This document shows, one piece after another, positions 18,678 through 32,872 of a stretch of DNA of 33,945 nt (its first letter is position 1; each line of letters opens with the position of its first letter). The DNA lies in assembly GCA_034716735.1 (NCBI GenBank), contig JAYEKT010000064.1, forward strand, positions 1 through 33,945, written 5' to 3'. The notes under the pieces are model-generated. The model saw nothing but the letters and a program-made list of their open reading frames with translations. It did not search any database and was not told the origin of the DNA. A program made the translations under genes and the position numbers. Source of the DNA: Patescibacteria group bacterium. Lineage in GTDB: Bacteria > Patescibacteriota > Patescibacteriia > DYHP01.

Positions 18678-20212
18678 TTCTTTTCTGGACGATATTGAAT
18701 CGCTTCGGCAATATCGTCTGGTGAAATATTTTCTCGTTCTTCTAAGTCCGCAATTGTGCGGGCTATTTTTAATACTCTAAAGTATCCACGGGCAGAAAGA
18801 TTTTTTAAGTTAACTGCTTGGCGGAGAAGTTGTTTTGATTCGTCATTAACTGGGCAGAACTTTTTGATTGTTTGCGACGACATTTCTGTGTTTGTGAAAA
18901 TTTCTAAATCTTTAAATCTTGCAGTTTGAATATCCCGCGCTTTTTGCACGCGTTCGCGTATAACGCGCGATGGTTCACCAATTGTTGTATCGTCTAATTT
19001 GTCAAAATCAATTTTTGGCACAGTAGTGTGTAAATCAATTCTATCCAAAAGAGGTCCAGAAATTTTTCTATGATATTTTGAAATTTGTCCGGGCAAGCAA
19101 TCGCATTTTCCATTAGGATCATTCAAATATCCACAAGGACAAGGATTTTGAGCGGCAATTAAAACAAATTTTGCGGGAAATTGCAGGGTTCCTGATGCGC
19201 GCGAGACAGTAACAAATCCGTCTTCAAGTGGTTGGCGTAAATTTTCTAAAACTGAACGATTAAATTCTGGAAGTTCGTCTAAAAACAAAACTCCGCGATG
19301 CGCCAAACTAATCTCACCAGGTTTTGGCCATGTTCCTCCGCCAACAAGAGCGACGCCAGAAGATGTGTGATGTGGACTTCTAAATGTTCGTTCTGTTATC
19401 AATGGCTTACTTGATGGCAAAAGACCAGCAATTGACCAAATTTTTGTCATTTCAAGCGCTTCATTCAAAGTGAGGCGGGGGAGGATTGTTGGAAGCGTGC
19501 GCGCTAACAATGTTTTTCCAGAACCAGGAGGGCCAGTCATTAAAATGTTATGTCCGCCTGCGGCGGCAATTTCTAAAACATGCTTGGCGTTTTCCTGTCC
19601 TTTTACAAACCCCATGTCAAAATCAGAAAGCCCAGAGTTTTCTAAATTAATTTTTCCACGTTGGTATGGGGCTATCAATTCTATGCCTTGAAGATGGAGT
19701 ATTAGTTGACGAAGATTTTTTACAGGAATAATTTCAAACCCTGGAACAAGCCCAGCTTCTCGCGCATTATCTTCAGGAAGATAAAGTGTTTTTGCGCCAA
19801 GTGATGTTGCCATTGTTGCAATTGAAAGAATTCCATTTACTCTACGAAGAGTCCCATCCAATGCAAGCTCGCCAATAAAAAGATTTTGGTGCTTGTCTTC
19901 TGGTGTGGCTTGAGTTGTTTTTATTGTACCTGAAGTGCAAAGCAAACTAATAGCAATTGGCAAATCATATGAAGGTCCTGCTTTTTTAATATCTGCTGGC
20001 GCAAGATTTACAGCAATGCGTGGACGAGGAAAAGTAAAACCACTGCTTTTAATAGCAGCCTTTACGCGCTCGCGCGATTCTTGAACCGCAGTATCTGGCA
20101 AACCAACAATTACAAAATTTACAAATCCGCCTGTAATGCAGGATTCAACTTCTATTGGCTTTGCCTCCAAGCCAATCGTCGCCGCAGAATATATTTTAGA
20201 TGTCATAGCCAT
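18674..20212 (-). CDS. comM: YifB/ComM-family Mg-chelatase-like AAA+ ATPase
   Basis: Lon-protease-like N-terminal domain, 'GPPGSGKT' Walker A, 'VLFLDELPEF' Walker B, C-terminal 'SARGYFRVLKIARTIADL'. Confidence 0.9.
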   Translation of the reverse strand: MAMTSKIYSAATIGLEAKPIEVESCITGGFVNFVIVGLPDTAVQESRERVKAAIKSSGFTFPRPRIAVNLAPADIKKAGPSYDLPIAISLLCTSGTIKTTQATPEDKHQNLFIGELALDGTLRRVNGILSIATMATSLGAKTLYLPEDNAREAGLVPGFEIIPVKNLRQLILHLQGIELIAPYQRGKINLENSGLSDFDMGFVKGQENAKHVLEIAAAGGHNILMTGPPGSGKTLLARTLPTILPRLTLNEALEMTKIWSIAGLLPSSKPLITERTFRSPHHTSSGVALVGGGTWPKPGEISLAHRGVLFLDELPEFNRSVLENLRQPLEDGFVTVSRASGTLQFPAKFVLIAAQNPCPCGYLNDPNGKCDCLPGQISKYHRKISGPLLDRIDLHTTVPKIDFDKLDDTTIGEPSRVIRERVQKARDIQTARFKDLEIFTNTEMSSQTIKKFCPVNDESKQLLRQAVNLKNLSARGYFRVLKIARTIADLEERENISPDDIAEAIQYRPEKN

Positions 20213-20296
20213 TTGTCATTCCTGCCCCGTAATAAATATGGGGTAAACTCCGGCAGGAATCCATTCATTTGTCATTCCTGCGAAGGCAGGAATCCA
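20213..20296. repeat. two adjacent GTCATTCCTGC...GCAGGAATCC palindromic elements (one long form, one short form)
   Basis: 20215-20263: TGTCATTCCTGCC-(25 nt)-GGCAGGAATCCA. 20270-20296: TGTCATTCCTGC-GAAG-GCAGGAATCCA. They start 1 nt upstream of the comM start codon. Confidence 0.85.
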
Positions 20297-20396
20297 TAAA
20301 TTAAATTCCATACTATCTTATCATATCTAAAAAGATGCGCAAGTTTTTGTTTTCTTATATAGAGTATGAGATAATAAAAAAAGAGATTTATAAAAT

Positions 20397-20428
20397 GGTA
20401 TGTTCAATGAACATACCGTGAACATACC
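20397..20428. promoter_or_regulatory. putative operator: 9-bp inverted repeat plus a third direct copy
   Basis: GGTATGTTC-AAT-GAACATACC-GT-GAACATACC, ending 6 nt before the AbrB-like ATG. Confidence 0.5.
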
Positions 20429-20434
20429 AAAAAT

Positions 20435-20590
20435 ATGTCTGACATAAGAAAAATCGTAAAAAACGGTCGCAATAGTTATTATATAAATATCCCAAAGGAA
20501 CTAATGAAGGAATTAAGATGGAAAGAAAAACAAAAACTCGTCGTCAAAAAACACGGTAAAGGAGTTTTGGTGGTGGATTGGGAGAAGTAG
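20435..20590 (+). CDS. AbrB/MazE/SpoVT-type DNA-binding protein (51 aa), no cognate toxin gene
   Basis: Hand translation: MSDIRKIVKNGRNSYYINIPKELMKELRWKEKQKLVVKKHGKGVLVVDWEK. The 'G.S..I.IPKE...L..K.G' pattern is typical of the SpoVT-AbrB fold. Below the ORF-track length cutoff. Confidence 0.6.
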   Translation: MSDIRKIVKNGRNSYYINIPKELMKELRWKEKQKLVVKKHGKGVLVVDWEK

Positions 20591-20618: not shown

Positions 20619-21284
20619 TTATTTGCGTTTTAAAATCTTCTGATCAGCAATACTTAATGGAATATCTAATAGTTTTTTAATAATCAATATTATTTTATTA
20701 TCATCACTATCATTCTGTTTATTACATATGAAATCAAAAGTTTTTTTATAATTCAATTTACGATCAGAGTTGATGATTAAAGTAGGGAATTCTCTTGACC
20801 ACATTTCATTAAAAATATCTATATAATCAAAATATTCTTTATCTATATACTTTCTCCCCGTTTTTTTAATAGCATTATTTAGTTTATATCTTTTGAGAGC
20901 TGTTTTATACGAACAAGATACGATAATGTATTTATTAGGTATTATGATTTCATTTTTGTTGAAATAGAATTCTAATTCTTTCAGATAGAATAATCGCATA
21001 TCAAATAATCCTTTTTTATAGATAGCATAAACATGGGCGCTCATAGAAATAAAGCTTCTATCTAATAGGTTGGTTCCATTATGAATTTGTAGCATTCTTT
21101 TTTTATCAACTTTAAGGTATCTTACTTGTTCATTTTTATAGACGCTATCGTGAGTATCCTTTAGTGGGATATTTTTTAGGATATCACAATACTCAACAAT
21201 TTTATTAAATCCGTATTTAGACGATAGTTTTGATATAATAGTGGTTTTTCCAGTAAAAACATTTCCATCAAACGATATAATCAT
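20619..21284 (-). CDS. P-loop nucleotide kinase, dTMP-kinase/deoxynucleoside-kinase-like
   Basis: 'ISFDGNVFTGKTT' P-loop and 'LLDRSFISMSAHVYA' (DR[YF]..S..AY region of the TMPK family). ATGA overlap with the upstream radical SAM gene. Confidence 0.6.
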   Translation of the reverse strand: MIISFDGNVFTGKTTIISKLSSKYGFNKIVEYCDILKNIPLKDTHDSVYKNEQVRYLKVDKKRMLQIHNGTNLLDRSFISMSAHVYAIYKKGLFDMRLFYLKELEFYFNKNEIIIPNKYIIVSCSYKTALKRYKLNNAIKKTGRKYIDKEYFDYIDIFNEMWSREFPTLIINSDRKLNYKKTFDFICNKQNDSDDNKIILIIKKLLDIPLSIADQKILKRK

Positions 21285-22144
21285 AGCGCTAATTTACATT
21301 TTTTACACAACGCAATACTTTTTTCATTTTTTAAATAAATTCTTTTTCTTATTTTGCGATACTTTGTTGAGTCCCAAACCCGTTGTATTGTTTGCTTGTT
21401 TAAATCTCCAAGAATATAATCAGATTTCCAATCCATACAACAAAGGATAACTTTCCCAGAGTATGTAATATGTATCCTATCAAGCGGTCTGTTTTGCTGA
21501 CAGCCAGCGGTCTGTTTTTTATAAATATTATTTTTGTATTTTTTAACATTATTAGATCTATCAAGAAAACCCCACAATTCAAATTTAATACAGTTTTTTT
21601 CACAGAATTTTTTAGCGATTTCAATATCTTTTTGACTAATGCGCGGGTAGTCAATCATTACAATGCTAAGTTGCCCAATACTATTTCTAAGCTTCTTGTT
21701 TGAAACTAATAAATCCAGATTTTGTTTTACATTTTTCCATAATATTCCAGGCATTGCTTTTTTATGGGTCTTTTCTGTAAATCCAAAAATACTCATACGC
21801 AAATCTCTAATATTTATCCCAAGCATTTTGTTTTGCATTTCCTCATTAAGCATAGAAAGATTTGTGGATATTTCAATTTCAGCTTCAGGACATTTTTTAT
21901 TTATATACTTCAGACGATCAATAAAATAAGGATCTAAAAATGGCTCGTTATTGAGGTAGGGGATAATTTTGATGCCCCAGGGATTTTTTATTTGATCAAT
22001 AATTTTCTTAAATAAATCTTTGCTCATAACGCCATGTGATTTTGAGTCCTTAATGTCGCGATAAGGACATATCGCGCACATTCCATTGCAATAAGATGCT
22101 GTTTGGATTTCTAACGCTTTTGGAAATGGTGAACATTTAATCAT
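21281..22144 (-). CDS. radical SAM / SPASM-domain protein
   Basis: 'SYCNGMCAICPY' CX3CX2C. C-terminal Cys cluster 'GCQQN...VILCCMDW...CKKCKL'. Confidence 0.8.
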   Translation of the reverse strand: MIKCSPFPKALEIQTASYCNGMCAICPYRDIKDSKSHGVMSKDLFKKIIDQIKNPWGIKIIPYLNNEPFLDPYFIDRLKYINKKCPEAEIEISTNLSMLNEEMQNKMLGINIRDLRMSIFGFTEKTHKKAMPGILWKNVKQNLDLLVSNKKLRNSIGQLSIVMIDYPRISQKDIEIAKKFCEKNCIKFELWGFLDRSNNVKKYKNNIYKKQTAGCQQNRPLDRIHITYSGKVILCCMDWKSDYILGDLNKQTIQRVWDSTKYRKIRKRIYLKNEKSIALCKKCKLAL

Positions 22145-23793
22145 ATCCTATCTATTCCAATATATATTTCTTTGACAATATCACGACCCCCACCTTCTAT
22201 CGTCTTAGTTATTATATCGGCGTGTTTAATTTTGATTGATTGCGAAATAGTCCTAAATTTATCAATGAAACTTTTATCTTCTTGATTTAATTCGCGCAAA
22301 TCACCGCGCGCAGTTAGGCGCGCAGTATTTTTAAGATATTCCGATAGTAGATTCATAGAGATATCTCGCATTTGGTTAAATTCTTTAAAATCATCCCTAA
22401 TAATTTTTTTGTATTTATTTTTTTCTTTTTTAAGTAGAGTCTCCAATAATTTACAAGTTGTGCAATAATATTCGTATTCATATGCCTCTGGATTTAGCGT
22501 TTCAGAAAAAATCTTTTTTAATTTTTTTAGTAGTTTCCCAACATCCGTATTTAAAAAATTATATCCATAAGTAATTTTATCGCATTTTGTATTTTTAGAT
22601 ATTAAGTTGTCACTTTGTAATTTAATATGAAGTTTAGAGCTTGGGATGACGCGCATAGGTTCCAATATCACCCCTAACCTAAATAATTTTCTTATTTTTA
22701 GTAGGTAATCAAAATTTAGGATTATATCATCTATAGTTGAGTAGGGTTCAAACACAATATATCCGATGTGAATATTTATATGACGAGCCTCTAATCTTTT
22801 TTTGATTTGCGAATATATATTTTTTTCTATTGTCTTATTGAATACCGCCTGACTTCTTTTTGACGCATTTTCTAAGCCCAAGAAAACTCGCGCTAACCCC
22901 ACAGAGGAAAGTTTTTTTAAAAGTTTTTCGCTAATAAATGGCTTGCATCTTAAGTAAATATAGAATTTGATATTTAACTTTCTTTTTTTTATTTCAGAAC
23001 AAAACTTTTCTATTCTATCGTTGTCCATTGGTCCTCTCCAAAAACAATCATCATTAAAGATAAAAAGGGTTTTATTTAATTTTTTATGCAAATATTCCAT
23101 CTCATCTACCACTAATTTAGGGTTTTTCATATCAACAACACCTTTTTTGTTATTAAATTTTGCCATTATTGGATTATGACAAAAACTACATCCAAAAGCA
23201 CAACCGCGAGACGCTTCTATATTTATATATTTTACATTTTCTTGAGCTTCTATATCTCGGGCAGGAAATGGCAATTTATTAAGCGAGATCGTTGCATTCC
23301 TTATTTTATTTGAGCTGATTTGATTTGTAGATGGTTTTCTCCAGATACCTCCGGGGCAATTGGTGTCAAAATTGCTACAATCCTTGTTAAGAGAATTAAC
23401 TAAAGCTAAAGATGTTTCTTCAATCGCGCCTGTTATCACACCGTCTATCCATACATAATCCTTTATCAATTCTTCAGCATTCAGAGATGCGTATGGACCA
23501 CAAATAAAAATTTTGTTTATTTTTTTATATTTTTTGAGTCCAGCAAGAATATTGAATAATTCTTTATAATCTTTAAAATTTGGTTTTGCAATAATGATAT
23601 TATATCTCTCCCTATCTTTTAGAATTTTTTCTGTAGCATGTAGATCTCGTTTTTCTAAAAAACACAAATCTACTTTATATCCATTTTTTCTTAAAAGGGA
23701 CGCAATACTTCCCATTGTCAAAGAAGCCCCTGATTGGGAGAAGAGGGTTCTATAAAAGACTAACTTTATTTTCTTCTGTCTTATTTGATTCAT
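22141..23793 (-). CDS. class B (B12-binding-domain) radical SAM protein
   Basis: N-terminal Rossmann-like B12-binding-type domain ('MGSIASLLRKNGYKVDL...IFICGPYASL...IDGVITGAIEE'), then 'ASRGCAFGCSFCHNP'. Confidence 0.75.
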   Translation of the reverse strand: MNQIRQKKIKLVFYRTLFSQSGASLTMGSIASLLRKNGYKVDLCFLEKRDLHATEKILKDRERYNIIIAKPNFKDYKELFNILAGLKKYKKINKIFICGPYASLNAEELIKDYVWIDGVITGAIEETSLALVNSLNKDCSNFDTNCPGGIWRKPSTNQISSNKIRNATISLNKLPFPARDIEAQENVKYINIEASRGCAFGCSFCHNPIMAKFNNKKGVVDMKNPKLVVDEMEYLHKKLNKTLFIFNDDCFWRGPMDNDRIEKFCSEIKKRKLNIKFYIYLRCKPFISEKLLKKLSSVGLARVFLGLENASKRSQAVFNKTIEKNIYSQIKKRLEARHINIHIGYIVFEPYSTIDDIILNFDYLLKIRKLFRLGVILEPMRVIPSSKLHIKLQSDNLISKNTKCDKITYGYNFLNTDVGKLLKKLKKIFSETLNPEAYEYEYYCTTCKLLETLLKKEKNKYKKIIRDDFKEFNQMRDISMNLLSEYLKNTARLTARGDLRELNQEDKSFIDKFRTISQSIKIKHADIITKTIEGGGRDIVKEIYIGIDRI

Positions 23794-23847
23794 ATAAATT
23801 TTTTTGATAGTATATAAAATATAATTTATTAACTAATAAATATCAAT

Positions 23848-24273
23848 ATGGATAAAGGACTAATCGTTCATACACTCATTTTTAATGATAAGAAGCAGGT
23901 TCTTATTACTAAAAGAGCCAAAATCAATGATGTGCTACCCGAATATTGGGATATTCCTGGAGGAACTCTGGAAGAAGGGGAAGACCCTATGGTTGGCGCG
24001 ATGCGTGAAACCAAAGAAGAGTCGGGGATAGATATAGAAAATCCTAATTTATTTTTTCAATTTTCTAATATAGACACAGGTAAAAATAAACAGTTTATTA
24101 CATTGGTTTTTTTAGCAGAATATTCTAGCGGGGATATAAAACTTAGTCCTGAAGAGCATGAAGATTATGCATGGATAGATATGGTAGATTCTGATAAATA
24201 TAAGAAAGTTAGTTATTTGCAGGATTGCTTTGATTTATTAAATTCAAAGAGTCATAATGTTCTTAAATTTTAA
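23848..24273 (+). CDS. NUDIX hydrolase
   Basis: Nudix box 'GGTLEEGEDPMVGAMRETKEESGI'. Divergent from the radical SAM operon. Confidence 0.85.
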   Translation: MDKGLIVHTLIFNDKKQVLITKRAKINDVLPEYWDIPGGTLEEGEDPMVGAMRETKEESGIDIENPNLFFQFSNIDTGKNKQFITLVFLAEYSSGDIKLSPEEHEDYAWIDMVDSDKYKKVSYLQDCFDLLNSKSHNVLKF

Positions 24274-25751
24274 GACATTTCAGTTTTTTCTTTCAAGACC
24301 TTTTTATTAAATATTTTGCTAATTAAAATTTTTAATAGAGTTCTGTATGAAGATAGTCCATGAAGAAGGTAGCAAGGGATTGCGCCCAAAAGAATACCTA
24401 ACAACGAGTTCCGTAGTTTTATTTTTTTTCTATCTACGATAAGCCAACTTAATAAGTTGGGGATTGATAAAAATAATATTGATTCACATATAAAAACAGC
24501 CCAAAAATATGGGCTGTTTTTATATATGGCAATAATAAGCGAGAGCGTCATAAATGTGGGACCGAACACCCAATAGACGGCATGGGAAAAAAGTTTGGAG
24601 GACAGGATAAATAATCTCATTTTGTCCCTCTTTTTTTCAAGCACCTGTTCACCTACTATCTTTTTGTAATAATTAAACGATTGTAACGGACCAAAAAACC
24701 AATTTGCTTTTTGTTTGTATATACTCTCTACACTGTCTGGCGTATCCGATTCGTCAAAGTAGGGAATTGGCATAATTAGTTCTTCGGCGTAGCTTAGTTT
24801 TAATCCAAAAATAGCATCTTCATTATGAGTTGTAGTATCAAACCCATTCAAGTTTTGGTAGATATCTCTCGTAAAAAATAGACCATGCCCTATGCAGTAA
24901 TTTAGCGGATAGTTAAATGACTGTTTGCGGTTTTTGAATTTCAATTGTTTTAGAGCGTGGTATATTTCAAATCCAATGCTCCACCTCGTCTGCCATAACG
25001 CAGCCGAGGTTAATATCTTACCACTAATTACGCCCTTAAAGTTTTGTATATTTCCGAGATAATTTCCATATTGTTGGAATACTTTGATATTGCTTTTTTT
25101 TGACATCTGCAAAACCCAGTTAAATGTTTTTGGATGTGGCTTTGAGTCAGCGTTATAAACACAGAAAATATCATTGTCGCGCTTGTTGTTTTTAATAATC
25201 AAATCAATAGCATAGTTCAGTTGGTTTGACATATTGCCATTTAGTTTTGGGTAGTGATAAGTTTTTACCAAGGGATTATTTCGGGATATTTTTTTAATAA
25301 TTTTTATTGTATTTTCTCGCTTATTTATTATTCTTTTTGCTTTTTCTTTTGCGTCAAATAAATTATCACCGATATTCTTTATATCAGTTTTGCATTTTAA
25401 ATTAATAAAGTCGCGGACAAGTTGAATCTGATTGATGCTTTCTAAGTTTTTTAATAAGAACTGTGTTCTTTTATCAAACAATTCAAACTCTTTTTCTGTA
25501 GAAATTAAAATAATACGAAATTTTTTGATATGCTTAAAGGTATTTGTAAAATATTTAACCGTTTGTTCAATTCTTTCTACTTCATCTAAGACAGGTATTA
25601 GCGCATATAAATTTTTATGGTATCTGTCAGAGTGTTTTAAGGATATTTTTCGGCTTTTCTTGATCCATCTATACGATATAAATATTTTAAAATACCAATA
25701 GAATGAAATAGTCGCAAATCCTAAAAAAATGGCGTAAAATATTTTTGTCAT
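24270..25751 (-). CDS. membrane-embedded family-2 glycosyltransferase (synthase-like topology)
   Basis: N-terminal TM helix, 'ALIPVLDE', 'VYNADSKP', 'HNEDAIFGL' GT2 motifs, then 3-4 C-terminal TM helices. Confidence 0.7.
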   Translation of the reverse strand: MTKIFYAIFLGFATISFYWYFKIFISYRWIKKSRKISLKHSDRYHKNLYALIPVLDEVERIEQTVKYFTNTFKHIKKFRIILISTEKEFELFDKRTQFLLKNLESINQIQLVRDFINLKCKTDIKNIGDNLFDAKEKAKRIINKRENTIKIIKKISRNNPLVKTYHYPKLNGNMSNQLNYAIDLIIKNNKRDNDIFCVYNADSKPHPKTFNWVLQMSKKSNIKVFQQYGNYLGNIQNFKGVISGKILTSAALWQTRWSIGFEIYHALKQLKFKNRKQSFNYPLNYCIGHGLFFTRDIYQNLNGFDTTTHNEDAIFGLKLSYAEELIMPIPYFDESDTPDSVESIYKQKANWFFGPLQSFNYYKKIVGEQVLEKKRDKMRLFILSSKLFSHAVYWVFGPTFMTLSLIIAIYKNSPYFWAVFICESILFLSIPNLLSWLIVDRKKIKLRNSLLGILLGAIPCYLLHGLSSYRTLLKILISKIFNKKVLKEKTEMS

Positions 25752-25769
25752 AATATTTGTGTATTAAAG

Positions 25770-25793
25770 AATGGGGAGAATTTTCTCCCCATT
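25770..25793 (-). terminator. hairpin between the NDK-like and GT2 genes (terminator or attenuator)
   Basis: AATGGGGAG-AATTTT-CTCCCCATT. It begins 2 nt after the NDK-like stop and has only a weak T-run. Confidence 0.45.
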
Positions 25794-25794
25794 A

Positions 25795-26292
25795 TTATAT
25801 TTTTGCCTTTATGGCATTGATGATACTTTCTTTTTTGAATAGAAGTAATGATTCTCGGAGAGTATCTTCAGTAGTGTCTGATGTATGCATTAAATTAATA
25901 ATGTTTCCCTCAGTATGCTTATATAAATGACGCACATGATTTTTTATTTCATTGAGTTCATTTATAACATCTGGACCAGTTAAGATAAGAGCGTGTGATA
26001 CGTCAGATAAAAGATATTTTTTGAGATCGTTTGCCCACTTTAGTTCGTGGAAACCAGGATACATATCAAAAATTAATTTTTCATTGAAGGTAAATTTTTT
26101 TTCAAGACATATACTTAGTTTTTCACTCAAAATATCTGTAATAGTATCTTTTAGTTTGAGATATGTAATATCTGGTTTTAAGATGCAGAGCCCAATCGTT
26201 AAATCACATAATTCTTGACAGTCTATCCTGGGCTGTATATCGCCATACCAAAATCTCAATTTCCCATCAACAATCTTCATCTTCTTTTCCAT
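25795..26292 (-). CDS. divergent nucleoside-diphosphate-kinase-like protein
   Basis: 'LCILKPD', 'LILTGPDV', 'NLMHTSDTTEDTLRESLLLF' parallel the NDK motifs IIKPD, SGPVV and N.[IV]HGSDS.E.A..EI..[WF]F, with the catalytic His retained. ATG at 26292 has AAGGAG 6 nt upstream. Confidence 0.6.
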   Translation of the reverse strand: MEKKMKIVDGKLRFWYGDIQPRIDCQELCDLTIGLCILKPDITYLKLKDTITDILSEKLSICLEKKFTFNEKLIFDMYPGFHELKWANDLKKYLLSDVSHALILTGPDVINELNEIKNHVRHLYKHTEGNIINLMHTSDTTEDTLRESLLLFKKESIINAIKAKI

Positions 26293-26399
26293 CAAAATCT
26301 CCTTTGTTTTTGGCGTTAAATAAATGAACCATGATTTTTCTATAAAATATCACAAAATTGTGTTTTTGTCAAGGGTAAAGCAAATAGCTGTAATTTAAA

Positions 26400-26428: not shown

Positions 26429-26451
26429 TATTTTAGCTTTGAACCCTCAAA

Positions 26452-26523
26452 GCGGGCGTCGTATAACGGCTATTATACATCCTTGCCAAGGATGAGACGG
26501 CGGTTCGATTCCGCTCGCCCGCT
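26452..26523 (+). tRNA. tRNA-Gly (anticodon GCC), no CCA encoded
   Basis: Acceptor GCGGGCG/CGCCCGC, anticodon stem CATCC/GGATG with loop TTGCCAA, T arm GGCGG-TTCGATT-CCGCT, U73. Confidence 0.9.
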
Positions 26524-26595
26524 TTGAGGGTTTTAAGATATTCAAAAACCCCCGCCTACCCTGTCATCCTCTGGTTTATCCAGTGGATCCACAAA

Positions 26596-26691: not shown

Positions 26692-28269
26692 ATGACAACT
26701 GAACAAAAAAAGACATTAGAGCGTCAATTGTGGAAAGTAGCCGACACGCTTCGCGGTAAAATGAACGCAGATGAATATAAAAATTACATTCTTGGCTTCA
26801 TTTTTTACAAATATCTTTCCGAAAAATTAGAACGCTATGTCAATGAAAAGCTTCTTGTGCGGGAAGATTTTAAATTTGCAGAAATTAAAGAAAGTACAAA
26901 AGAGGGTAAATTAACTTTGGAAGAGGTAAGAAAAGCGTGCGTCGGACACCTCGGTTTTTTCTTAAAACCAAAAGAATTATTTTCTTATCTTGTTAAAAAA
27001 GGCAAGGGGGAAATAAAAAATCAAGAAGATTTTATTTTAGAAGATCTAAAAAGTGTTTTAGATACCATTGAACAAACATCTAAAAACACAGCAAGTGAAG
27101 ATGATTTTAAGGGTCTTTTTGATGATGTAGATTTAACATCTTCAAAACTTGGTTCTCGCGAAAATCAAAAAAATGAAACAATTATTGAAATTTTTAAACT
27201 TCTAAGTGAAATAGATTTTAAATTAGAAGATTCAAAAAGCGATTTACTTGGTGATGCTTATGAATATCTTATTGGAGAATTTGCCGCAGGCGCTGGTAAA
27301 AAAGGTGGTGAGTTTTATACCCCCGCACAAGTATCACGCTTGTTGGCTCAAATTGTAACAGAAGATAAAAAGAAAATTTGCTCAGTTTACGATCCAACCT
27401 GTGGTTCGGGTTCGCTTTTGCTTCGTATAGGTGACTTTGTTGATGTTGGCAATTACTTTGGGCAAGAACTTAATCGAACAACCTATAACCTCGCGCGTAT
27501 GAATATGATATTGCACGGCGTTAATTTTAATGACTTTAATATTCAACAAGGAGATACTTTAGTGGAAGACGCGCATCCAGATTTAAGAGCAGAGGCAATA
27601 GTTGCCAATCCTCCTTTTGCCGCAAAATGGAAAAGCGATAGTGATCCACAGTTAGCGCAAGATGAAAGATTTTCTCAATATGGAAGATTAGCGCCAAAAG
27701 GCGCGGCAGATTATGCTTTTGTAACACATATGATTTATCACTTGGCTGATAATGGAACAATGGCTGTTGTTTTACCGCATGGCGTATTGTTCAGAGGAGG
27801 CGCAGAAGGGCAGATAAGAAAATATATTATAGAAAGTCAAAATTATTTAGATGCGGTTATCGGGTTTCCTGCAAATATTTTTTATGGAACTTCTATTCCA
27901 GTAACCGTTCTGGTATTTAAAAAATGTCGTAAAGATGATGAGGATATTTTATTTATTGACGCGTCAAAAGAGTTTGAAAAAGGAAGAAATCAAAATCACC
28001 TGACTGATGAAAATCTTACAAAAATTTTTGAAACTTATGAAAAGCGTAAAGAGATAGAAAAATATTCTCATAAAGCAAGCTTGGAAGAAATTAAAGAAAA
28101 TGATTATAACTTAAACATTCCGCGCTATGTAGATACTTTTGAAGAAGAAGAGGAAATAGATATTGATAAAGTCGCGAAAGAGTTGAGAGGATTTCAGTCA
28201 AAAGAGAAAGAGATAGAGAAAAGAATCACAAAATATTGTAAGGAGTTGAAGATAGATAAGCCGTTTTAG
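26692..28269 (+). CDS. hsdM: Type I restriction-modification system, N6-adenine methyltransferase subunit
   Basis: HsdM N-terminal domain 'LWKVADTLRGKMNADEYKNYILGFIFYKYLS', motif I 'DPTCGSGSLL', motif IV 'VANPPFAAKW'. Confidence 0.92.
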   Translation: MTTEQKKTLERQLWKVADTLRGKMNADEYKNYILGFIFYKYLSEKLERYVNEKLLVREDFKFAEIKESTKEGKLTLEEVRKACVGHLGFFLKPKELFSYLVKKGKGEIKNQEDFILEDLKSVLDTIEQTSKNTASEDDFKGLFDDVDLTSSKLGSRENQKNETIIEIFKLLSEIDFKLEDSKSDLLGDAYEYLIGEFAAGAGKKGGEFYTPAQVSRLLAQIVTEDKKKICSVYDPTCGSGSLLLRIGDFVDVGNYFGQELNRTTYNLARMNMILHGVNFNDFNIQQGDTLVEDAHPDLRAEAIVANPPFAAKWKSDSDPQLAQDERFSQYGRLAPKGAADYAFVTHMIYHLADNGTMAVVLPHGVLFRGGAEGQIRKYIIESQNYLDAVIGFPANIFYGTSIPVTVLVFKKCRKDDEDILFIDASKEFEKGRNQNHLTDENLTKIFETYEKRKEIEKYSHKASLEEIKENDYNLNIPRYVDTFEEEEEIDIDKVAKELRGFQSKEKEIEKRITKYCKELKIDKPF

Positions 28270-28289
28270 AGTAGTAAATTGTTAAAATT

Positions 28290-29240
28290 ATGCAAGAAGA
28301 CAAAAATAATCAAATAATCATCTATAAAGCTGAAGACGGTAAGACAAAAATTGAAGTTCAGGTAAAAGATGAAACTGTTTGGCTTTCGCAAAAGCAAATG
28401 GCAGAGCTTTTTGATTGCTCTGTGGATAATGTAGGGCTTCATTTAAAGAATATTTATTTTGAAGGAGAATTAGTGGAAAATTTAACTTCCGAGGATTCCT
28501 CGGTAGTTCAAATAGAGGGCGGACGGAGTGTGAATAGACCGATTAAATCTTACAATCTAGATGCAATTATTTCCGTTGGGTATAGGGTTAATTCCTTGCG
28601 TGGTACACAGTTTCGTATTTGGGCAACTCAAAAATTGCGCGATTACATTATTAAGGGTTTTGCTATGGACGACGAACGATTGGCTGAAGGTCGGGTAGAA
28701 AAAACATATTTTGAAGAATGGGAAGATCGGATTAGAAAAATTAGAACTTCGGAAGCTAATTTTTATCAAAAAGTAAAAGACGTTTTTGCTACTAGCGCGG
28801 ATTATGATTCGAGATCAGATTACGCTAAGCAATTTTTTTCAGTAGTACAAAATAAATTTCATTTTGCTATAACTGGCTTAACTGCAGCAGAAATTGTTTC
28901 CAGTCGTGTAAGTAGTAGCAAGGATAATTTAGGATTAACGAATTGGAAGGGTGAGATCATCACACGCGATCAAGCACAGGTTGCAAAGAATTATTTAGAA
29001 GAGCTGGAACTTAAAAGATTAAATTTATTAGTAGAGCAATTTTTATCTTTTGCAGAACTGCAAAGTATAGAAAAGAGAGTGATGTATATGAGGGATTGGA
29101 TTAAAAAATTAGATGGTTTTTTAGTTTTAAATGACAAAAAGATTTTACAGAATGCGGGTAATATTTCGCATGTAAAAATGGAAAAGAAGGTTAGGGAGGA
29201 ACTAAAGAAATATAATGAGAATATTAAAGAATTAAAATAA
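28290..29240 (+). CDS. rhuM: RhuM-family protein
   Basis: 'IIIYKAEDGKTKIEVQVKDETVWLSQKQMAELF', 'ISVGYRVNSLRGTQFRIWATQKLRDYIIKGFAMDDERL' are characteristic RhuM motifs. The hsdM-rhuM-hsdS arrangement is common. Confidence 0.8.
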   Translation: MQEDKNNQIIIYKAEDGKTKIEVQVKDETVWLSQKQMAELFDCSVDNVGLHLKNIYFEGELVENLTSEDSSVVQIEGGRSVNRPIKSYNLDAIISVGYRVNSLRGTQFRIWATQKLRDYIIKGFAMDDERLAEGRVEKTYFEEWEDRIRKIRTSEANFYQKVKDVFATSADYDSRSDYAKQFFSVVQNKFHFAITGLTAAEIVSSRVSSSKDNLGLTNWKGEIITRDQAQVAKNYLEELELKRLNLLVEQFLSFAELQSIEKRVMYMRDWIKKLDGFLVLNDKKILQNAGNISHVKMEKKVREELKKYNENIKELK

Positions 29241-29266
29241 AAAAGTTACTATATTTTTTAAATAAA

Positions 29267-30553
29267 ATGCCAGCCAAAAACAAAAAATCAAAAAATAAAA
29301 AAATCCCGAAACTTCGTTTTCCGGAGTTTTCTGGTGCGTGGGAGGAGAGGAGGTTGGGGGAGGTGGGGGATATTATTACAGGTACGACTCCACCAACAGC
29401 AGAACGCGATTTTTATGGAGACGAGTTTATGTTTATATCACCAGCAGATATCGGAAACAAACGTTATATCAGAGATACAAAAAACAAATTAAGCAAATTG
29501 GGTTTTGGCTATGGAAGGGGGGTTAGAAAAAATGCAACGTTGTTTGTGTGTATTGGTTCAACTATAGGAAAAGTCGCACAAGCTGATAGAGATTGTTCGA
29601 CAAATCAACAAATTAATTCAATAGAATCAAATAAAAATAATTTAGATGATTTTATTTTTTATAGGTTGTTAAATGATTCAAAGAAAATTAAATTGTTAGC
29701 AGGTACTCAAGCTGTTCCACAATTAAATAAAACTCAATTTTCTAGTTTAAAATTTTGTTTTCCTATATTGAAGGAACAACAAAAAATCGCTGGGTTTTTG
29801 GGAGGGGTAGATGAGTGGATTGAAAATCTTCGCGCGGAAAAGGAAAAAATGGAAGAATATAAAAAAGGAATGATGCAAAAGATTTTTGACTTCTCTTGTC
29901 ATTCCCGCGCAGGCGGGAATCCAGAAAATTGCATCCGTTTCAAAGACGACAACGGTAAAAATTTTCCAGATTGGGAGGAGAAGGGGTTGGGGGAAATAAA
30001 AGTATTCGTATCTGATGGAAATTATGGGGAGATGTATCCAAAGGCGAGTGAAATGAAAGATACTGGAGTTCCCTTTATTCGTGCAAACAATATAAAAGAT
30101 CTCAAAGTGGTTTGGGATGATATGAAATATATAGGTAGTGATTTACATAAAATGCTACAAAGTGGCCATTTAAAAAAAGGTGATATTTTAGTTACAACAA
30201 GGGGTGAAATTGGTATGCTTGCCTATGTAGATGAAGAATTTGACGATGCCAATATCAACGCGCAAATTTGTTTATTAAGGTGCGGTAATGATATTTTGCC
30301 AAGATTTTTATTAAATTATTTATCATCGCGAATTGGGCAAAAACAATTTAAGGAATTACAGACCGGTTCAGCATTAAAACAATTACCAAAAGGGAATCTA
30401 TCAAAGATAAAAATTAATCTTCCATCACTTCCAGAACAGCAAAAAATCGCAGAATTTTTGACTTCCTTAGATAATCTGATAGAATTAAAAGAAAAACAAA
30501 TAACCCAAGCAGAGGAGTGGAAAAAGGGCTTAATGCAGGGGTTGTTTGTGTAA
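29267..30553 (+). CDS. hsdS: Type I R-M specificity subunit (two TRDs)
   Basis: 'PKLRFPEFSGAWEERRLGEV' and 'DWEEKGLGEI' TRD starts. Conserved helices 'LKEQQKIAGFL...KKGMMQKIF' and 'LPEQQKIAEFL...KKGLMQGLFV'. Confidence 0.9.
   Translation: MPAKNKKSKNKKIPKLRFPEFSGAWEERRLGEVGDIITGTTPPTAERDFYGDEFMFISPADIGNKRYIRDTKNKLSKLGFGYGRGVRKNATLFVCIGSTIGKVAQADRDCSTNQQINSIESNKNNLDDFIFYRLLNDSKKIKLLAGTQAVPQLNKTQFSSLKFCFPILKEQQKIAGFLGGVDEWIENLRAEKEKMEEYKKGMMQKIFDFSCHSRAGGNPENCIRFKDDNGKNFPDWEEKGLGEIKVFVSDGNYGEMYPKASEMKDTGVPFIRANNIKDLKVVWDDMKYIGSDLHKMLQSGHLKKGDILVTTRGEIGMLAYVDEEFDDANINAQICLLRCGNDILPRFLLNYLSSRIGQKQFKELQTGSALKQLPKGNLSKIKINLPSLPEQQKIAEFLTSLDNLIELKEKQITQAEEWKKGLMQGLFV
29891..29932 (+). repeat. in-frame copy of the GTCATTCC-YGC...GCR-GGAATCC palindromic element inside hsdS
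   Basis: TTCTCTTGTCATTCCCGC-GCAG-GCGGGAATCCAGAAAATTGC encodes FSCHSRAGGNPENC. It sits between the central conserved helix and the 'IRFKDDNG' start of TRD2. Confidence 0.65.
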
Positions 30554-30559
30554 TAATTT

Positions 30560-31198: not shown

Positions 31199-31201
31199 AA
31201 T

Positions 31202-31257
31202 AAATAACCCAAGCCGAGCAATGGAAAAAAGGTTTGATGTAGGGGTTGTTTGTGTAA
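31202..31257 (+). pseudogene. remnant of an hsdS 3' end (56 nt, 49/56 identical to 30498-30553) with an in-frame stop
   Basis: Hand alignment. It reads ITQAEQWKKGLM*GLFV*, compared with the hsdS C-terminus ITQAEEWKKGLMQGLFV*. Confidence 0.8.
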
Positions 31258-31259
31258 AC

Positions 31260-31347
31260 TTGCAATTTTTTTAGAGTGTGTTATAATAAAATTATTAACA
31301 CAACACTTTAAGATAAAGTTGCAATTTTTTTTAATATAGATTATAAT
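31260..31347 (+). promoter_or_regulatory. two tandem promoters upstream of higB, plus an imperfect palindrome
   Basis: P1 is TTGCAA (31260), 16 nt, TATAAT (31282). P2 is TTGCAA (31319), 17 nt, TATAAT (31342), ending 4 nt before the ATG. GTGTGTTATAAT-AAA-ATTATTAACACAAC overlaps the P1 -10. Confidence 0.5.
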
Positions 31348-31351
31348 AGAT

Positions 31352-31657: not shown

Positions 31658-31680
31658 AAAAATAATTAATCTATAAGAAT

Positions 31681-32862: not shown

Positions 32863-32872
32863 TAATGAAATT

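Follow-up and report, generated by a model that had tools for sequence, protein, structure and literature searches.

Six genes of a Patescibacteria group bacterium form a conserved and horizontally shared unit, not a chance neighbourhood. They encode two radical SAM enzymes, a kinase of the deoxynucleoside kinase (dNK) family, an NDK-like protein, a Nudix hydrolase and a membrane glycosyltransferase (GT2). We put the chances that they constitute one biosynthetic cassette acting on a nucleotide-linked small molecule at about even. The best reading is a nucleoside-analogue-type pathway with a step that glycosylates or exports the product; tailoring of an NDP-sugar or glycan is a serious rival. 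The original prediction had named two chemistries, a modified nucleotide and a modified NDP-sugar handed to the GT2. Both survive, with new evidence favouring nucleotide-linked chemistry. It had also proposed an undescribed system, in line with our results: the literature searched held no description of the cassette, every component scored below the cut-offs of curated families, and the NCBI product names are generic.

Organization of the locus

The window is the whole stretch of DNA that was analysed (33,945 nucleotides). All six predicted open reading frames were recovered in it, together with the motifs assigned to them (CAFGCSFC, CNGMCAIC, FDGNVFTGKTT, LLDRSFIS, NLMHTSD and the canonical Nudix box). 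Gene coordinates are those of the ORF list.

20210-20302: REP-like palindromes
20435-20590: AbrB/MazE-like ORF
20619-21284 (-): P-loop kinase, dNK family, 221 aa
21281-22144 (-): radical SAM enzyme with SPASM-type C-terminus, BtrN-like 'twitch', 287 aa
22141-23793 (-): radical SAM enzyme, class-B type, with N-terminal B12-like (cobalamin) domain, 550 aa
23794-23847: divergent intergenic region, 54 nt, between the B12-type radical SAM and Nudix genes
23846-23818 (-): promoter-like site for the radical SAM operon, inside the divergent gap (consensus match only)
23848-24273 (+): Nudix hydrolase, MutT/NudI-type, 141 aa
24270-25751 (-): membrane GT2, synthase-type, 493 aa
25770-25793: perfect GC-rich hairpin between the NDK-like gene and the GT2 gene (terminator-like scan, both strands)
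25795-26295 (-): NDK-like (divergent NDK-fold) protein, 166 aa
26344-26372 (-): promoter-like site 5' of the NDK-like-GT2 unit (consensus match only)
26451-26524: tRNA-Gly

The BtrN-like radical SAM gene is translationally coupled via ATGA to both of its neighbours. The 4-nt overlaps with the kinase gene (21281-21284) and the B12-type radical SAM gene (22141-22144) are real, as expected for the proposed three-gene operon on the minus strand. The Nudix gene is convergent with the GT2 gene and overlaps it by 4 nt. Gaps between genes within the block measure only 43-54 nt, too little to accommodate a precursor-peptide gene, and the lack of a short precursor ORF noted earlier was confirmed. The promoter-like site of the radical SAM operon reads TTGATA-17-TATATT on the minus strand, and the 54-nt gap presumably also holds the promoter of the Nudix gene. 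The second promoter-like site, 5' of the NDK-like-GT2 unit, reads TTGACA-17-TATTTT, carries an extended TG and has 10/12 matches to the consensus. The hairpin described earlier was located at 25770-25793 (sequence AATGGGGAGAATTTTCTCCCCATT, arms GGGGAGAA/TTCTCCCC); judged from its sequence, it may be an attenuator or an RNA-stability element. The flanks are likewise as described, with the palindromes and the AbrB-like ORF on the left and the tRNA-Gly followed by an R-M/Abi island (hsdM, RhuM, hsdS, Abi_C, HTH-M78) on the right. The AbrB-like gene is not supported as a system component, as it is not conserved alongside the cassette.

The block had been described as an AT-rich island. Its bulk GC content is indeed lower than that of the rest (29.8% versus 35.3%), but GC3 is the same (0.22-0.32 versus 0.24-0.31), and the Fic and DHH genes elsewhere in the window are with 30% GC as AT-rich as the block. 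The compositional difference that had been looked for is thus weak, being present in bulk GC and absent from GC3, and the unchanged GC3 speaks against AT-richness as a sign of recent transfer. Because GC3 is the same and other window genes are equally AT-rich, there is no clear foreign-DNA signature; the composition signal of the block reflects amino-acid content.

Conservation and distribution of the cassette

Related loci were recovered in two ways. Anchoring on the B12-type radical SAM yielded 28 non-redundant genome loci, anchoring on the kinase 34 metagenome loci, and both anchors recover the same gene set. The reciprocal, kinase-anchored search found the same cassette in 31/31 metagenome loci with flank sequence. 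Beyond this contig, the hosts comprise further ultra-small bacteria, archaea of the DPANN type, and Firmicutes from gut and soil. Every CPR locus that a contig end does not truncate carries the full set of six genes. Four archaeal and 11 Firmicutes loci carry a four-gene core (B12-type radical SAM, second radical SAM, dNK-family kinase and membrane GT2) plus the Nudix gene, which lies within 9 kb of the B12-type radical SAM gene in 24/28 genome loci. The gene combination is strongly conserved in other genomes, with varying flanks and a shuffled gene order of at least two arrangements. Among the Firmicutes hosts, Paenibacillus tyrfis and Eubacterium sp. AF36-5BH are in culture. NTP_transf_5 genes accompany the variants of both genera, and in Paenibacillus there is also a faint HprK-related-kinase-like gene; some RiPP clusters contain genes of these two kinds.

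The genomic context bears on a role in anti-phage defence. In that case an infected cell would use the cassette to produce a nucleotide analogue that terminates chains or poisons polymerases, in the manner of prokaryotic viperins with their adjacent kinases. In the window, the type I R-M, RhuM and Abi_C island adjoins the cassette, and a tRNA lies less than 1 kb from the cassette edge in six loci as well as in the window. Recombinase, UvrD, AbiJ and terminase genes neighbour locus L004, RT, TIR-like and recombinase genes surround the variant seen in L017, L018 and L109, and L065 is within a conjugative element. There is also a weak likeness to the PADLOC candidate PDC-M51, a radical SAM and kinase pair (component A 36-41 bits, component B 28 bits). 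However, most CPR loci are flanked by ordinary housekeeping genes (GreA, peptide deformylase, folate genes), and no component has a convincing PADLOC match. The search for homologues of the B12-type enzyme on phage and viral contigs revealed none that suggest an arms race. Similarity to viperin is limited to the generic radical SAM core (~1e-4), and a membrane synthase-type GT2 fits no viperin-like scheme. With these mixed flanks and no PADLOC membership, the specific antiviral role raised earlier is not upheld, and we regard defence as unlikely.

The two radical SAM enzymes

The 550-aa protein matches Pfam Radical_SAM (3.1e-12), and its Pfam B12-binding match (0.018) is below threshold. The motif C198-x3-C202-x2-C205 is invariant in the family. 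The AF2 model (pLDDT 90.8) consists of a 5-strand Rossmann domain, a radical SAM barrel and a C-terminal helical bundle. The family profile matches OxsB at 9.5e-21, with the next match at 4.8e-9, and Foldseek ranked OxsB first (7.8e-22, TM 0.65), followed by AprD4 (7.6e-16). OxsB is the enzyme that contracts the ring of a deoxyadenosine nucleotide in oxetanocin formation. N72-F73 aligns with OxsB N186-F187. An Asn at the Asn72 position is found in 100/100 aligned family members, compared with about 12 of about 130 next-nearest B12 radical SAM enzymes. In OxsB, Asn186 sits under the cobalt (PMC13331322, PMC12931638). OxsB is the nearest solved structure, but at 17% identity; its N-terminal domain is absent from the family, and the cassette lacks an HD-domain OxsA partner. 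More than 1000 uncharacterised B12 radical SAM enzymes outscore OxsB on the family profile (~190-230 versus 77 bits). Patescibacteria are not known to make cobalamin.

The 287-aa protein matches Pfam Radical_SAM (1.7e-14) and SPASM (3.9e-14). Its profile finds BtrN, an aminocyclitol dehydrogenase, at 6.4e-23 over core and C-terminal domain, with YydG next (1e-8). Invariant are C19/C23/C26 together with C215, C235, C280 and C283. The earlier SPASM assignment therefore holds as a Pfam match, but because there is only one, BtrN-type auxiliary-cluster Cys set, the enzyme is twitch-like and not a full SPASM protein. As predicted, neither radical SAM belongs to a known curated family, the best NCBIfam matches reaching 58-80 bits against cut-offs of 170-750.

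It is highly improbable that the block serves RiPP maturation, or that housekeeping genes for salvage came to lie beside unrelated radical SAM genes by chance. Chance is ruled out by the synteny across two domains of life. Among NCBIfam families the B12-type enzyme scores best with ApyD, which belongs to RiPP biosynthesis; enzymes of the SPASM type are common among peptide maturases, and the additional Paenibacillus and Eubacterium genes would also suit a RiPP cluster. However, the ApyD score of 80 bits is well under the cut-off of 750, a precursor ORF is lacking, and the second radical SAM is specifically BtrN-like. No RRE/PqqD domain is present, and the radical SAM motif of the 287-aa enzyme begins at residue 19.

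The kinases and the Nudix hydrolase

The kinase has a Pfam dNK match below threshold (2.6e-4). It had been described as dTMP-kinase-like; the family profile instead places it with deoxynucleoside kinases (8puu, 3e-5; Mycoplasma dGK 2jas, 8e-5), ahead of TMPK (2pbr, 1e-3). DGNVxxGKT, E31, D75-R76-S77, R97, R132 and T142 are invariant. The kinase is the hub gene of the cassette. It adjoins the B12-type radical SAM in 27/28 genome loci, the sole exception being cut by a contig end, and the B12-type and/or BtrN-like enzyme in 31/31 metagenome loci with upstream sequence.

The NDK-like protein matches Pfam NDK at 8.6e-10 (39 bits, cut-off 27), with K40, Y79, R122 and H137, the latter at the catalytic position, invariant. 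Its gene is found in 11/11 CPR loci and is specific to CPR cassettes; a TMPK-like kinase replaces it in archaea, Firmicutes, Bacteroidota and Verrucomicrobiota. Paenibacillus and Eubacterium, cultured Firmicutes with large genomes, are assumed to have a complete nucleotide metabolism. Since dedicated kinases are retained even in their cassettes, the substrate of these kinases appears to be pathway-specific.

The predicted Nudix hydrolase, divergently encoded and with a canonical box, is present (Pfam NUDIX 6.3e-20). Its profile matches 3grn (MutT-related, 3e-22), NudI (3e-14) and MutT (1e-12), but GDP-mannose hydrolase only at 1e-9. Its closer relatives are therefore NTP pyrophosphatases, with GDP-mannose hydrolase more distant.

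A variant from Bacteroidota and Verrucomicrobiota keeps the B12-type radical SAM, both kinases and the Nudix gene, and has no glycosyltransferase at all. In place of the GT2 and the second radical SAM it carries a protein of the beta-RFAP-synthase family (TIGR00144, 169 bits, cut-off 113.5). The nearest structure is ForT, the formycin C-nucleotide synthase. Because such a C-glycoside synthase would already yield a 5'-phosphate, the dNK-like enzyme of the variant may phosphorylate another position, by analogy with the cryptic phosphorylation by AbmG cited in PMC12691670.

The membrane glycosyltransferase

The 493-aa protein matches Pfam Glyco_trans_2_3 (4.9e-8). In the AF2 model (pLDDT 93.7) a single TM helix at the N-terminus precedes a GT-A domain, and a bundle of TM helices forms the C-terminus, consistent with the multi-TM GT2 proposed. 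Foldseek matches include BcsA (2.6e-9), Chlorella-virus hyaluronan synthase (TM 0.54-0.57), chitin synthase and the membrane mannosyltransferase PcManGT, also a GT2. Judged from the model, the nearest solved relatives are hyaluronan and cellulose synthases. E57, D202-S203, E311-D312 and Q347...W351 are invariant.

A glycan pathway is the serious rival, although we consider it rather less than probable. Here, the GT2 would be a processive synthase, and the two radical SAM enzymes would tailor the NDP-sugar donor or a nascent surface or secreted glycan; such tailoring could, for instance, combine oxidation with C-methylation or ring rearrangement. Kinases and NDK would provide the nucleotide handle or regenerate it, while the Nudix enzyme would proofread or drain the NDP-sugar pool, as does WcaH/Gmm of colanic-acid clusters. 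This agrees with the synthase-like fold and the retained ED and Q...W motifs, with the carbohydrate-acting BtrN and AprD4 among the nearest relatives of the radical SAM enzymes, and with the presence of the GT2 in all non-truncated CPR, archaeal and Firmicutes cassettes. In CPR, moreover, relatives of the GT2 without radical SAM genes adjoin a dNK-like kinase, Nudix, PIG-L or polysaccharide deacetylases and a second GT2. In contrast, CPR and archaeal cassettes have no sugar-1-phosphate nucleotidyltransferase or sugar-activating enzyme, and nucleotide kinases are kept in Paenibacillus and Eubacterium, where they should be superfluous. The glycosyltransferase-free variant with its C-nucleotide synthase and the NTP pyrophosphatase-like Nudix also argue against a glycan.

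A glycolipid or cyclitol product is improbable. The GT2 would glycosylate a scavenged membrane lipid, and the radical SAM enzymes would remodel the sugar to give a head group that is carbocyclic or oxidised, in analogy to hopanoid HpnI (a GT2) and HpnJ (a sugar-ring-contracting B12 radical SAM enzyme). CPR, DPANN and small-genome gut Firmicutes, in which the cassette is found, are understood to scavenge lipids. A GT2, a B12 radical SAM and a cyclitol-oxidising BtrN-like enzyme match this chemical logic; HpnJ is matched at 2.5e-11 and PcManGT is among the GT2 matches. However, HpnJ (43 bits) scores below several other B12 families, a search for an HpnI match to the GT2 gave none, the GT2 is absent from the ForT-like variant, and the two kinases, NDK and Nudix stay unexplained.

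Proposed pathway

Taken up again, the nucleotide-linked pathway would proceed in six steps. The dNK-family kinase would phosphorylate a salvaged (deoxy)nucleoside or nucleoside-like intermediate, as suggested by its family, P-loop, Glu at the catalytic-base position of dNKs, and DRS and LID residues. A second phosphotransferase, NDK-like or TMPK-like, would set the phosphorylation state from NMP via NDP to NTP, a role suggested by the non-orthologous replacement of one by the other. The OxsB-like cobalamin-type enzyme would abstract a sugar-ring hydrogen and rearrange or alkylate the ring, given the similarity to its nearest structure and the shared Asn under the cobalt. The BtrN-like enzyme with its single auxiliary cluster could oxidise a secondary alcohol on that ring by two electrons, or catalyse a related step there. 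The MutT/NudI-type Nudix hydrolase would hydrolyse the di- or triphosphate form, shielding the polymerases of the producer or releasing a monophosphate, with OxsA and ThmC as analogues. In the least certain step, the hyaluronan/cellulose-synthase-type GT2 might glycosylate or use the product at the membrane and extrude it. The same logic is seen in OxsB with its phosphohydrolase, in AlsB with a second radical SAM, and in thmABC (radical SAM, nucleoside kinase, and an NTPase conferring self-resistance).

Several points stand against the nucleotide reading. It is not evident what a GT2 would do in making a nucleoside analogue, AprD4 (the second structural neighbour) and BtrN act on aminoglycoside carbohydrates and not on nucleotides, and the GT2 loci without radical SAM genes fit a glycan pathway whose GT2 is served by kinase and Nudix. 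Further, the link to OxsB is one of nearest solved structure only, Pfam B12-binding and dNK both score below threshold, and Patescibacteria are not known to make cobalamin. Nevertheless, the evidence leans to nucleotide-linked chemistry because of OxsB as nearest relative with the shared Asn, the dNK-family kinase, the NDK/TMPK replacement, the MutT/NudI-type Nudix and the ForT-like variant. Most likely, what the cassette makes and exports is a nucleoside, nucleotide or nucleotide-linked sugar with a remodelled sugar ring.

The cassette and its surroundings

The window makes up a whole contig of 33,945 bp from a Patescibacteria MAG. Six open reading frames had been named by the original prediction in the block 20619-26295. 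All six were found at their predicted positions, with the expected domain content of a kinase, two radical SAM (rSAM) enzymes, a Nudix hydrolase, a GT2 and an NDK-domain protein.

Genes of the cassette in the window
20619-21284 (-), P-loop kinase, dNK-like, 221 aa; sub-threshold Pfam dNK match
21281-22144 (-), second rSAM, BtrN-like, 287 aa; SPASM-type C-terminus
22141-23793 (-), first rSAM, B12-type, 550 aa; weak B12-binding match
23848-24273 (+), Nudix hydrolase; canonical
24270-25751 (-), membrane GT2; Glyco_trans_2_3
25795-26295 (-), NDK-like protein

As predicted, ATGA overlaps join the three minus-strand genes between 20619 and 23793. The Nudix gene is divergent from this rSAM operon, with a promoter-like site in the 54-nt gap between them. 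A further promoter-like site belongs to a second minus-strand unit, made up of the NDK-like and GT2 genes with a perfect GC hairpin between the two.

Both flanks were also recovered as described. The left one contains comM, REP-like palindromes and an AbrB/MazE-like ORF. The REP-like unit occurs in two copies at 20210-20302 (CATTTGTCATTCCTGC ... GCAGGAATCC), between comM and the AbrB-like gene. Directly upstream of the AbrB/MazE-like ORF (20435), positions 20396-20429 hold a perfect 11-nt palindrome (TGGTATGTTCA/TGAACATACCA), which may be an operator, and a tandem TGAACATACC repeat. On the right, tRNA-Gly (26451-26524) is enclosed by a 25-nt inverted repeat (26434-26540) that lengthens the acceptor stem by ~14 bp into leader and trailer and could be a processing signal. 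It is followed by a type I R-M locus (26692-33945) consisting of hsdM, an inserted RhuM-family gene, hsdS, an Abi_C protein and HTH-M78 (ImmA/IrrE-like). No hsdR was found from 26692 up to the contig end at 33945.

The block had further been called an AT-rich island. This stood for bulk composition, with 29.8% GC against 35.3% in the rest of the window, but not for third codon positions, where GC is the same as in valS, tyrS and comM. Other genes of the window are just as AT-rich. Since GC3 is unchanged and AT-rich genes occur elsewhere in the window, composition marks no recent acquisition of the block. Recent transfer as a deduction from composition was rejected, the cassette and its neighbours having equal GC3. 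A second AT-rich stretch (30% GC), which may be part of a second accessory island, contains a 442-aa Fic/DOC-family protein (11109-12437) beside tRNA-Val and tRNA-Ala.

The first radical SAM enzyme has OxsB as its nearest characterised relative

The 550-aa protein matched Pfam Radical_SAM (3.1e-12), and C198, C202 and C205 of its CxxxCxxC motif were invariant in 26 aligned homologues. A profile from 26 homologues, searched against solved structures, placed OxsB far ahead (9.5e-21), followed by the MCR glutamine methylase (4.8e-9). In the AF2 model (pLDDT 90.8), a Rossmann domain of five strands plus a hairpin is joined to the rSAM barrel, and a bundle of helices forms the C-terminus. Foldseek with this model, a check proposed by the original prediction, returned OxsB first (7.8e-22, TM 0.65) and then AprD4, TokK, TsrM, CysS and MgmA. 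The matches to OxsB, TokK, TsrM, CysS and MgmA run over the full length. AprD4, the second-best fold match, is a diol dehydratase that is not known to use cobalamin. The Pfam B12-binding score (15 bits) fell short of the cut-off (32), and PF02310 was absent from close homologues in the precomputed Pfam annotation.

Asn72-Phe73, in the loop after strand 3, aligned with Asn186-Phe187 of OxsB. In OxsB, Asn186 lies under the cobalt through a water molecule, a hydrophilic arrangement that sets this enzyme apart, since Trp or Leu serves in the methylases (two reviews: PMC13331322, PMC12931638). Asn72 was present in 100/100 aligned family members, compared with ~12 of ~130 next-nearest B12-rSAMs. The likeness to OxsB comprises a putative Cbl-type Rossmann domain, the rSAM barrel, the C-terminal helical bundle and the Asn after strand 3 that would lie under the cobalt.

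Identity to OxsB is 17%, and the alignment begins at OxsB residue 138; the 550-aa protein starts with the Rossmann domain. Alignment and AF2 model agree that the N-terminal domain of OxsB is absent and the C-terminal helical bundle present. An HD-domain protein was not found in the cassette, where the partners are the Nudix hydrolase and the BtrN-like rSAM. An exhaustive HMM search returned ~45 representatives, at 50% identity, of the family proper (>250 bits). More than 1000 uncharacterised BchE-like B12-rSAMs scored 190-230 bits against the family profile, all far above OxsB. Because these proteins outscore it, OxsB is the nearest characterised relative and not close kin. Membership of the OxsB family was dropped for this reason; what is left is that OxsB is the solved protein nearest to it and has the Asn in common.

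The second radical SAM enzyme is a BtrN-like twitch enzyme

The 287-aa protein matched BtrN across the core and the auxiliary domain (6.4e-23; next match 1e-8). Viperins matched far less well than BtrN, at 1e-4 to 2e-3 and in the N-terminal rSAM core only. C215, C235, C280 and C283 are invariant and make up a single four-Cys auxiliary set; three of the four are assignable to BtrN positions from the alignment. A second SPASM Cys set is absent. The protein had been predicted to be a SPASM rSAM. A SPASM-type C-terminus was indeed found, but because there is one invariant four-Cys auxiliary set we assign it as a twitch enzyme and not as full SPASM. In size and in its single four-Cys set it is like BtrN, the twitch-type 2-deoxy-scyllo-inosamine dehydrogenase of butirosin. 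In contrast to BtrN, the cassette does not lie in an aminoglycoside cluster, and no aminoglycoside genes occurred in any locus examined.

A RiPP pathway was rejected, as there is no precursor and no N-terminal RRE and the second rSAM is BtrN-like. The prediction that a precursor-peptide ORF is missing was borne out, since the block has no ORF space. No short ORF family common to the loci was seen in the accessory-gene clustering, whose scope was ORFs of at least 70 aa, above the size of short precursors.

Kinase, NDK-like protein and Nudix hydrolase

The kinase profile aligned over its full length with the dNKs 8puu and 2jas. Invariant are the P-loop DGNVxxGKT, E31, which by analogy with dNK and dCK would be the catalytic base, the DRS motif D75-R76-S77, and R132 among the LID residues. 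The Pfam dNK score (21.2 bits) is below the cut-off of 27, and there was no NCBIfam match. The kinase is the hub that is common to all cassette variants.

The NDK-like protein scored 39 bits with Pfam NDK (cut-off 27), and K40, Y79, R122 and H137, the phospho-His position, were invariant in 12 orthologues. No counterparts of the canonical Kpn-loop contacts, presumably R88 and T94, were identified in the alignment, and the NCBIfam equivalog scores were far below cut-off. For these two reasons we regard it as a divergent NDK member. Most orthologues from CPR (Patescibacteria-type ultra-small) bacteria carry a conserved N-terminal extension of ~60 aa (D-x-KGR ... GEYI-x-VDGEKRYW); they belong to L002, L004 and L006-L012, where L-numbers are handles for cassette-related loci in other genomes and metagenomes. 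The extension is missing from the window copy and from L001.

The Nudix box GX5EX7REUXEEXGU is intact (Pfam NUDIX 6.3e-20). The nearest structures were 3grn, a MutT-related archaeal protein, then NudI and MutT; the match to GDP-mannose hydrolase was much weaker.

The GT2 resembles membrane synthases in its predicted fold

The AF2 model of the GT2 (pLDDT 93.7) is nearest in fold to membrane-integrated processive synthases, namely BcsA, Chlorella-virus hyaluronan synthase (TM 0.54-0.57) and chitin synthase. E57, D202 and E311-D312 are conserved, and the acceptor motif is Q347-K-x-N-W351, with the Arg of QxxRW missing. The predicted fold, topology and TM bundle resemble those of BcsA, hyaluronan synthase and chitin synthase/NodC, and the nucleotide-binding Asp, the ED motif and a Q-x3-W acceptor motif are retained. 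However, identity to the processive synthases is 9-13%, QKxNW replaces QxxRW, and there is no PilZ domain or partner subunit. In a further difference from known synthases, members of this GT2 clade always have kinases (dNK- or TMPK-like) and Nudix genes as neighbours. Kinship with HpnI/HpnJ was rejected (no HpnI match; HpnJ 43 bits only).

The presence of a GT2 speaks for NDP-sugar or glycan tailoring for this enzyme, the main rival to a pathway that makes a nucleoside analogue. The substrates of BtrN and AprD4 are carbohydrates as well, but a sugar-activating enzyme is absent from the cassette.

No cassette component reached a curated NCBIfam cut-off, and NCBI product names are generic. Assignment to curated families was therefore abandoned; the NCBIfam/Pfam matches of both rSAMs, the kinase and the GT2 are at superfamily level only.

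The cassette is conserved in bacteria and archaea

The six genes are one unit. Close homologues of the 550-aa rSAM fall into ~77 clusters, almost all of them from Patescibacteria and Woesearchaeota. All six genes recur on long contigs in Falkowbacteria, a CPR MAG and a complete 1.09-Mb Moraniibacteriota genome, with unrelated flanks and in two gene orders. We then scanned one genome per GTDB species, which gave 57 loci, and searched six-frame ORFs by phmmer and jackhmmer. The six-gene set was found in all 11 non-redundant CPR loci, the sole exception being cut by a contig end. Four archaeal MAG loci, labelled Woesearchaeota or, in two cases, Methanosarcinales, contain the GT2, both rSAMs, the kinase and the Nudix gene. 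The same core was detected in 11 Firmicutes loci. Besides gut MAGs, these come from the isolate Eubacterium sp. AF36-5BH and from Paenibacillus tyrfis, the last recovered via its GT2.

The B12-type rSAM was accompanied by the kinase in 27/28 loci, by the second rSAM in 25/28, and by the GT2 and the Nudix gene in 24/28 each. All absences in CPR, archaeal and Firmicutes loci fall at contig ends, except for the Nudix gene missing in P. tyrfis. In a reverse search of JGI metagenomes with the kinase as anchor, the same cassette was present in 31/31 loci that had any upstream sequence. The original prediction had proposed looking for the combination in other genomes, and it is conserved in CPR, archaea and Firmicutes. 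A chance neighbourhood was ruled out by this synteny across two domains of life. The NDK-like gene is limited to CPR cassettes; elsewhere a TMPK-like kinase, encoded on its own or as a fusion with the dNK-like kinase, takes its role. Eight loci have, as an optional addition, a small SAM methyltransferase.

Identity to the window 550-aa rSAM is 44-45% for the archaeal copies and 41-50% for many CPR copies. As the archaeal copies are as similar as many from CPR, these sequence identities imply that transfer took place between both groups.

The AbrB/MazE-like gene and tRNA-Gly were dropped from the list of components, because they are not conserved together with the other genes. A tRNA gene was located less than 1 kb from the cassette edge in 6/30 loci scanned, plus the window, with a different identity each time. 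By a rough estimate from typical small-genome tRNA density this is two to three times chance, and it is weak evidence of island-like insertion.

tRNA genes near a cassette edge
Window, 26451
L004, 6554
L007, 1780
L020, 8971
L026, 7275-7441
L086, 9333

Relatives of the B12-type rSAM in IMG/VR, INPHARED phages and PLSDB were limited to generic matches (22-28% identity). A phage or plasmid origin was rejected on this basis; viral BtrN-like genes are distant and stand-alone. Such genes were seen on the IMG/VR contigs L067-L076 (25-35% identity), without other cassette genes.

Prokaryotic viperins and PDC-M51, a PADLOC candidate consisting of an rSAM and a kinase, are like the cassette in that an rSAM is genetically coupled to nucleotide kinases, and some cassette loci have mobile or defence-rich surroundings. 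A defence role is possible but unsupported. Neither cassette rSAM is a viperin, the similarity being to the generic core only (~1e-4), and PDC-M51 scored only 28-41 bits, while the cassette has a GT2 and a second rSAM. The flanks of the loci are mixed, the PADLOC similarity is weak, and viral or plasmid relatives were not found. Assignment as a defence system was accordingly rejected: PADLOC gave weak similarity to PDC-M51A and PDC-S07 only and no viperin match.

Variant loci

One variant lacks the GT2 and the second rSAM and consists of a Nudix gene, a TMPK-like kinase, the B12-type rSAM, the dNK-like kinase and a 316-aa protein. It was found in two MAGs, one of Prolixibacteraceae and one of Verrucomicrobiae, and on a metagenome contig, with RT, TIR-like and recombinase genes as neighbours. 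The 316-aa protein belongs to the beta-RFAP-synthase family (TIGR00144, 169 bits; cut-off 113.5), and among structures it is nearest to ForT, a PRPP-dependent synthase that makes the C-nucleotide in the formycin pathway. By this relationship, the variant ties the trio of B12-type rSAM, kinase and Nudix directly to nucleotide-analogue chemistry. Absence of the GT2 from the ForT-like variant argues against glycan tailoring.

Variant loci and their coordinates
ForT-like variant (Bacteroidota, Verrucomicrobiota): L017 8541-13224; L018 9193-13697; L109 3887-8570
rSAM-less GT2 relatives (CPR): L063 9516-14154; L064 5054-13092; L066 6929-10670
Larger-genome versions (one a high-GC contig): L062 1367-19230 (Paenibacillus tyrfis); L099; L101

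Glycan tailoring gains support from rSAM-less relatives of the GT2 in CPR. Their neighbours are one to three Nudix genes and a kinase that belongs to the dNK-like family of the cassette (5e-16, 2e-18), with PIG-L or polysaccharide deacetylases and a second GT2 also nearby. From their gene content, such modules tie the kinase and Nudix to the GT2 too. On the other side, Paenibacillus and Eubacterium, which we assume to be metabolically complete, keep the dedicated kinases.

The larger-genome versions add, depending on the locus, two paralogous ~320-aa proteins, NTP_transf_5 genes and an ABC transporter, and resemble secondary-metabolite clusters. In P. tyrfis the extras include NTP_transf_5 genes and an ABC transporter, together with an aminotransferase, a carrier protein and an ATP-grasp enzyme; faint similarity to HprK-related kinase/FomB was seen for one of its ~320-aa proteins. 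In L065 (1-11379), from a gut Firmicutes, the cassette lies inside a conjugative element and is bordered by PrgI, a VirB4/TraG-like ATPase, HU and an M23 peptidase.

Relation to known nucleoside pathways and proposed scheme

The oxetanocin A pathway of Bacillus megaterium combines the cobalamin-dependent rSAM OxsB with the HD phosphohydrolase OxsA. By analogy, the cassette may follow the same logic, in which the substrate is a phosphorylated (deoxy)nucleoside and the rSAM has its own phosphohydrolase partner. In contrast to oxetanocin, the hydrolase of the cassette is a Nudix and not an HD-domain protein, and there are in addition two phosphotransferases, a membrane GT2 and another rSAM. In albucidin biosynthesis two rSAMs, the OxsB homologue AlsB/AlbB and AlsA/AlbA, act in turn on a deoxynucleotide sugar ring; OxsB and AlsB have 44% similarity. 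The pairing of a B12-type enzyme with a second rSAM would be the analogous feature here. However, AlsA is biotin-synthase-like whereas the second rSAM of the cassette is BtrN-like, and kinase, Nudix and GT2 are not reported as required for albucidin. Albucidin is moreover an actinomycete secondary metabolite, whereas the cassette is common to CPR, DPANN and Firmicutes.

The 4'-thiothymidine genes thmABC of Photorhabdus encode an rSAM, a dNK-type nucleoside kinase and a self-resistance nucleoside triphosphatase (PMC12691670). The minimal logic of thmABC, and of AbmG, AbmJ and AbmM of albomycin, appears like that of the cassette by description, not by sequence. In contrast to the cassette, PMC12691670 gives no evidence of a B12-type domain in ThmA, and a membrane GT2 is absent there. 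The cassette is best filed under the rSAM nucleoside-analogue pathway type, with a membrane-synthase step that lacks precedent.

We infer the substrate, cobalamin use, product and role of the cassette. The simplest scheme that uses every conserved part would be a pathway on a nucleotide-linked small molecule. The dNK-like kinase would phosphorylate the substrate, and the NDK-like or TMPK-like enzyme would adjust its phosphate state. The OxsB-like and then the BtrN-like rSAM would remodel the sugar ring. The Nudix enzyme may hydrolyse the di- or triphosphate form, for self-protection or release, and the synthase-type GT2 would glycosylate and/or extrude the product. The original prediction of a modified nucleotide, or of a modified NDP-sugar for the GT2, stands as a hedged interpretation of a conserved cassette whose parts now have established nearest relatives.

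It had also been predicted that the gene combination is not a described system. We searched the literature for the combination, PDC-M51, OxsB homologues in CPR and P. tyrfis products, and found no description of the cassette or of its combination, in which two oxygen-sensitive radical enzymes of unassigned families occur with dedicated nucleotide kinases, a Nudix for sanitising and a synthase-type GT2 in the membrane. The cassette is uncharacterised and horizontally shared. Our fullest reading is tentative, and we hold it to be possible but on the doubtful side. Ultra-small episymbionts (Patescibacteria, DPANN-type archaea) and some gut and soil Firmicutes would share horizontally a novel pathway in which an OxsB-like cobalamin rSAM and a BtrN-like rSAM remodel the sugar ring of a kinase-activated nucleoside, which the hyaluronan-synthase-like GT2 glycosylates and extrudes. 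This would yield either a glyco-nucleoside antimetabolite of a new class, released from the cell, or a surface polymer derived from nucleotides, for interactions between symbiont, host or competitors.

To our knowledge, there are few reports of specialised metabolism from CPR bacteria and DPANN archaea, which otherwise have pared-down genomes. That they kept and exchanged the cassette (44-45% CPR-archaeal identity) points to a function important for host-dependent life. The only natural oxetane nucleosides we know of are oxetanocin and albucidin. A ring-remodelled nucleoside as product would enlarge the very small set of B12-radical-SAM nucleoside analogues. It might also offer new antiviral or antibacterial scaffolds, and would make the source of cobalamin in Patescibacteria a question. 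The cultured carriers Eubacterium sp. AF36-5BH and Paenibacillus tyrfis make the cassette experimentally tractable.
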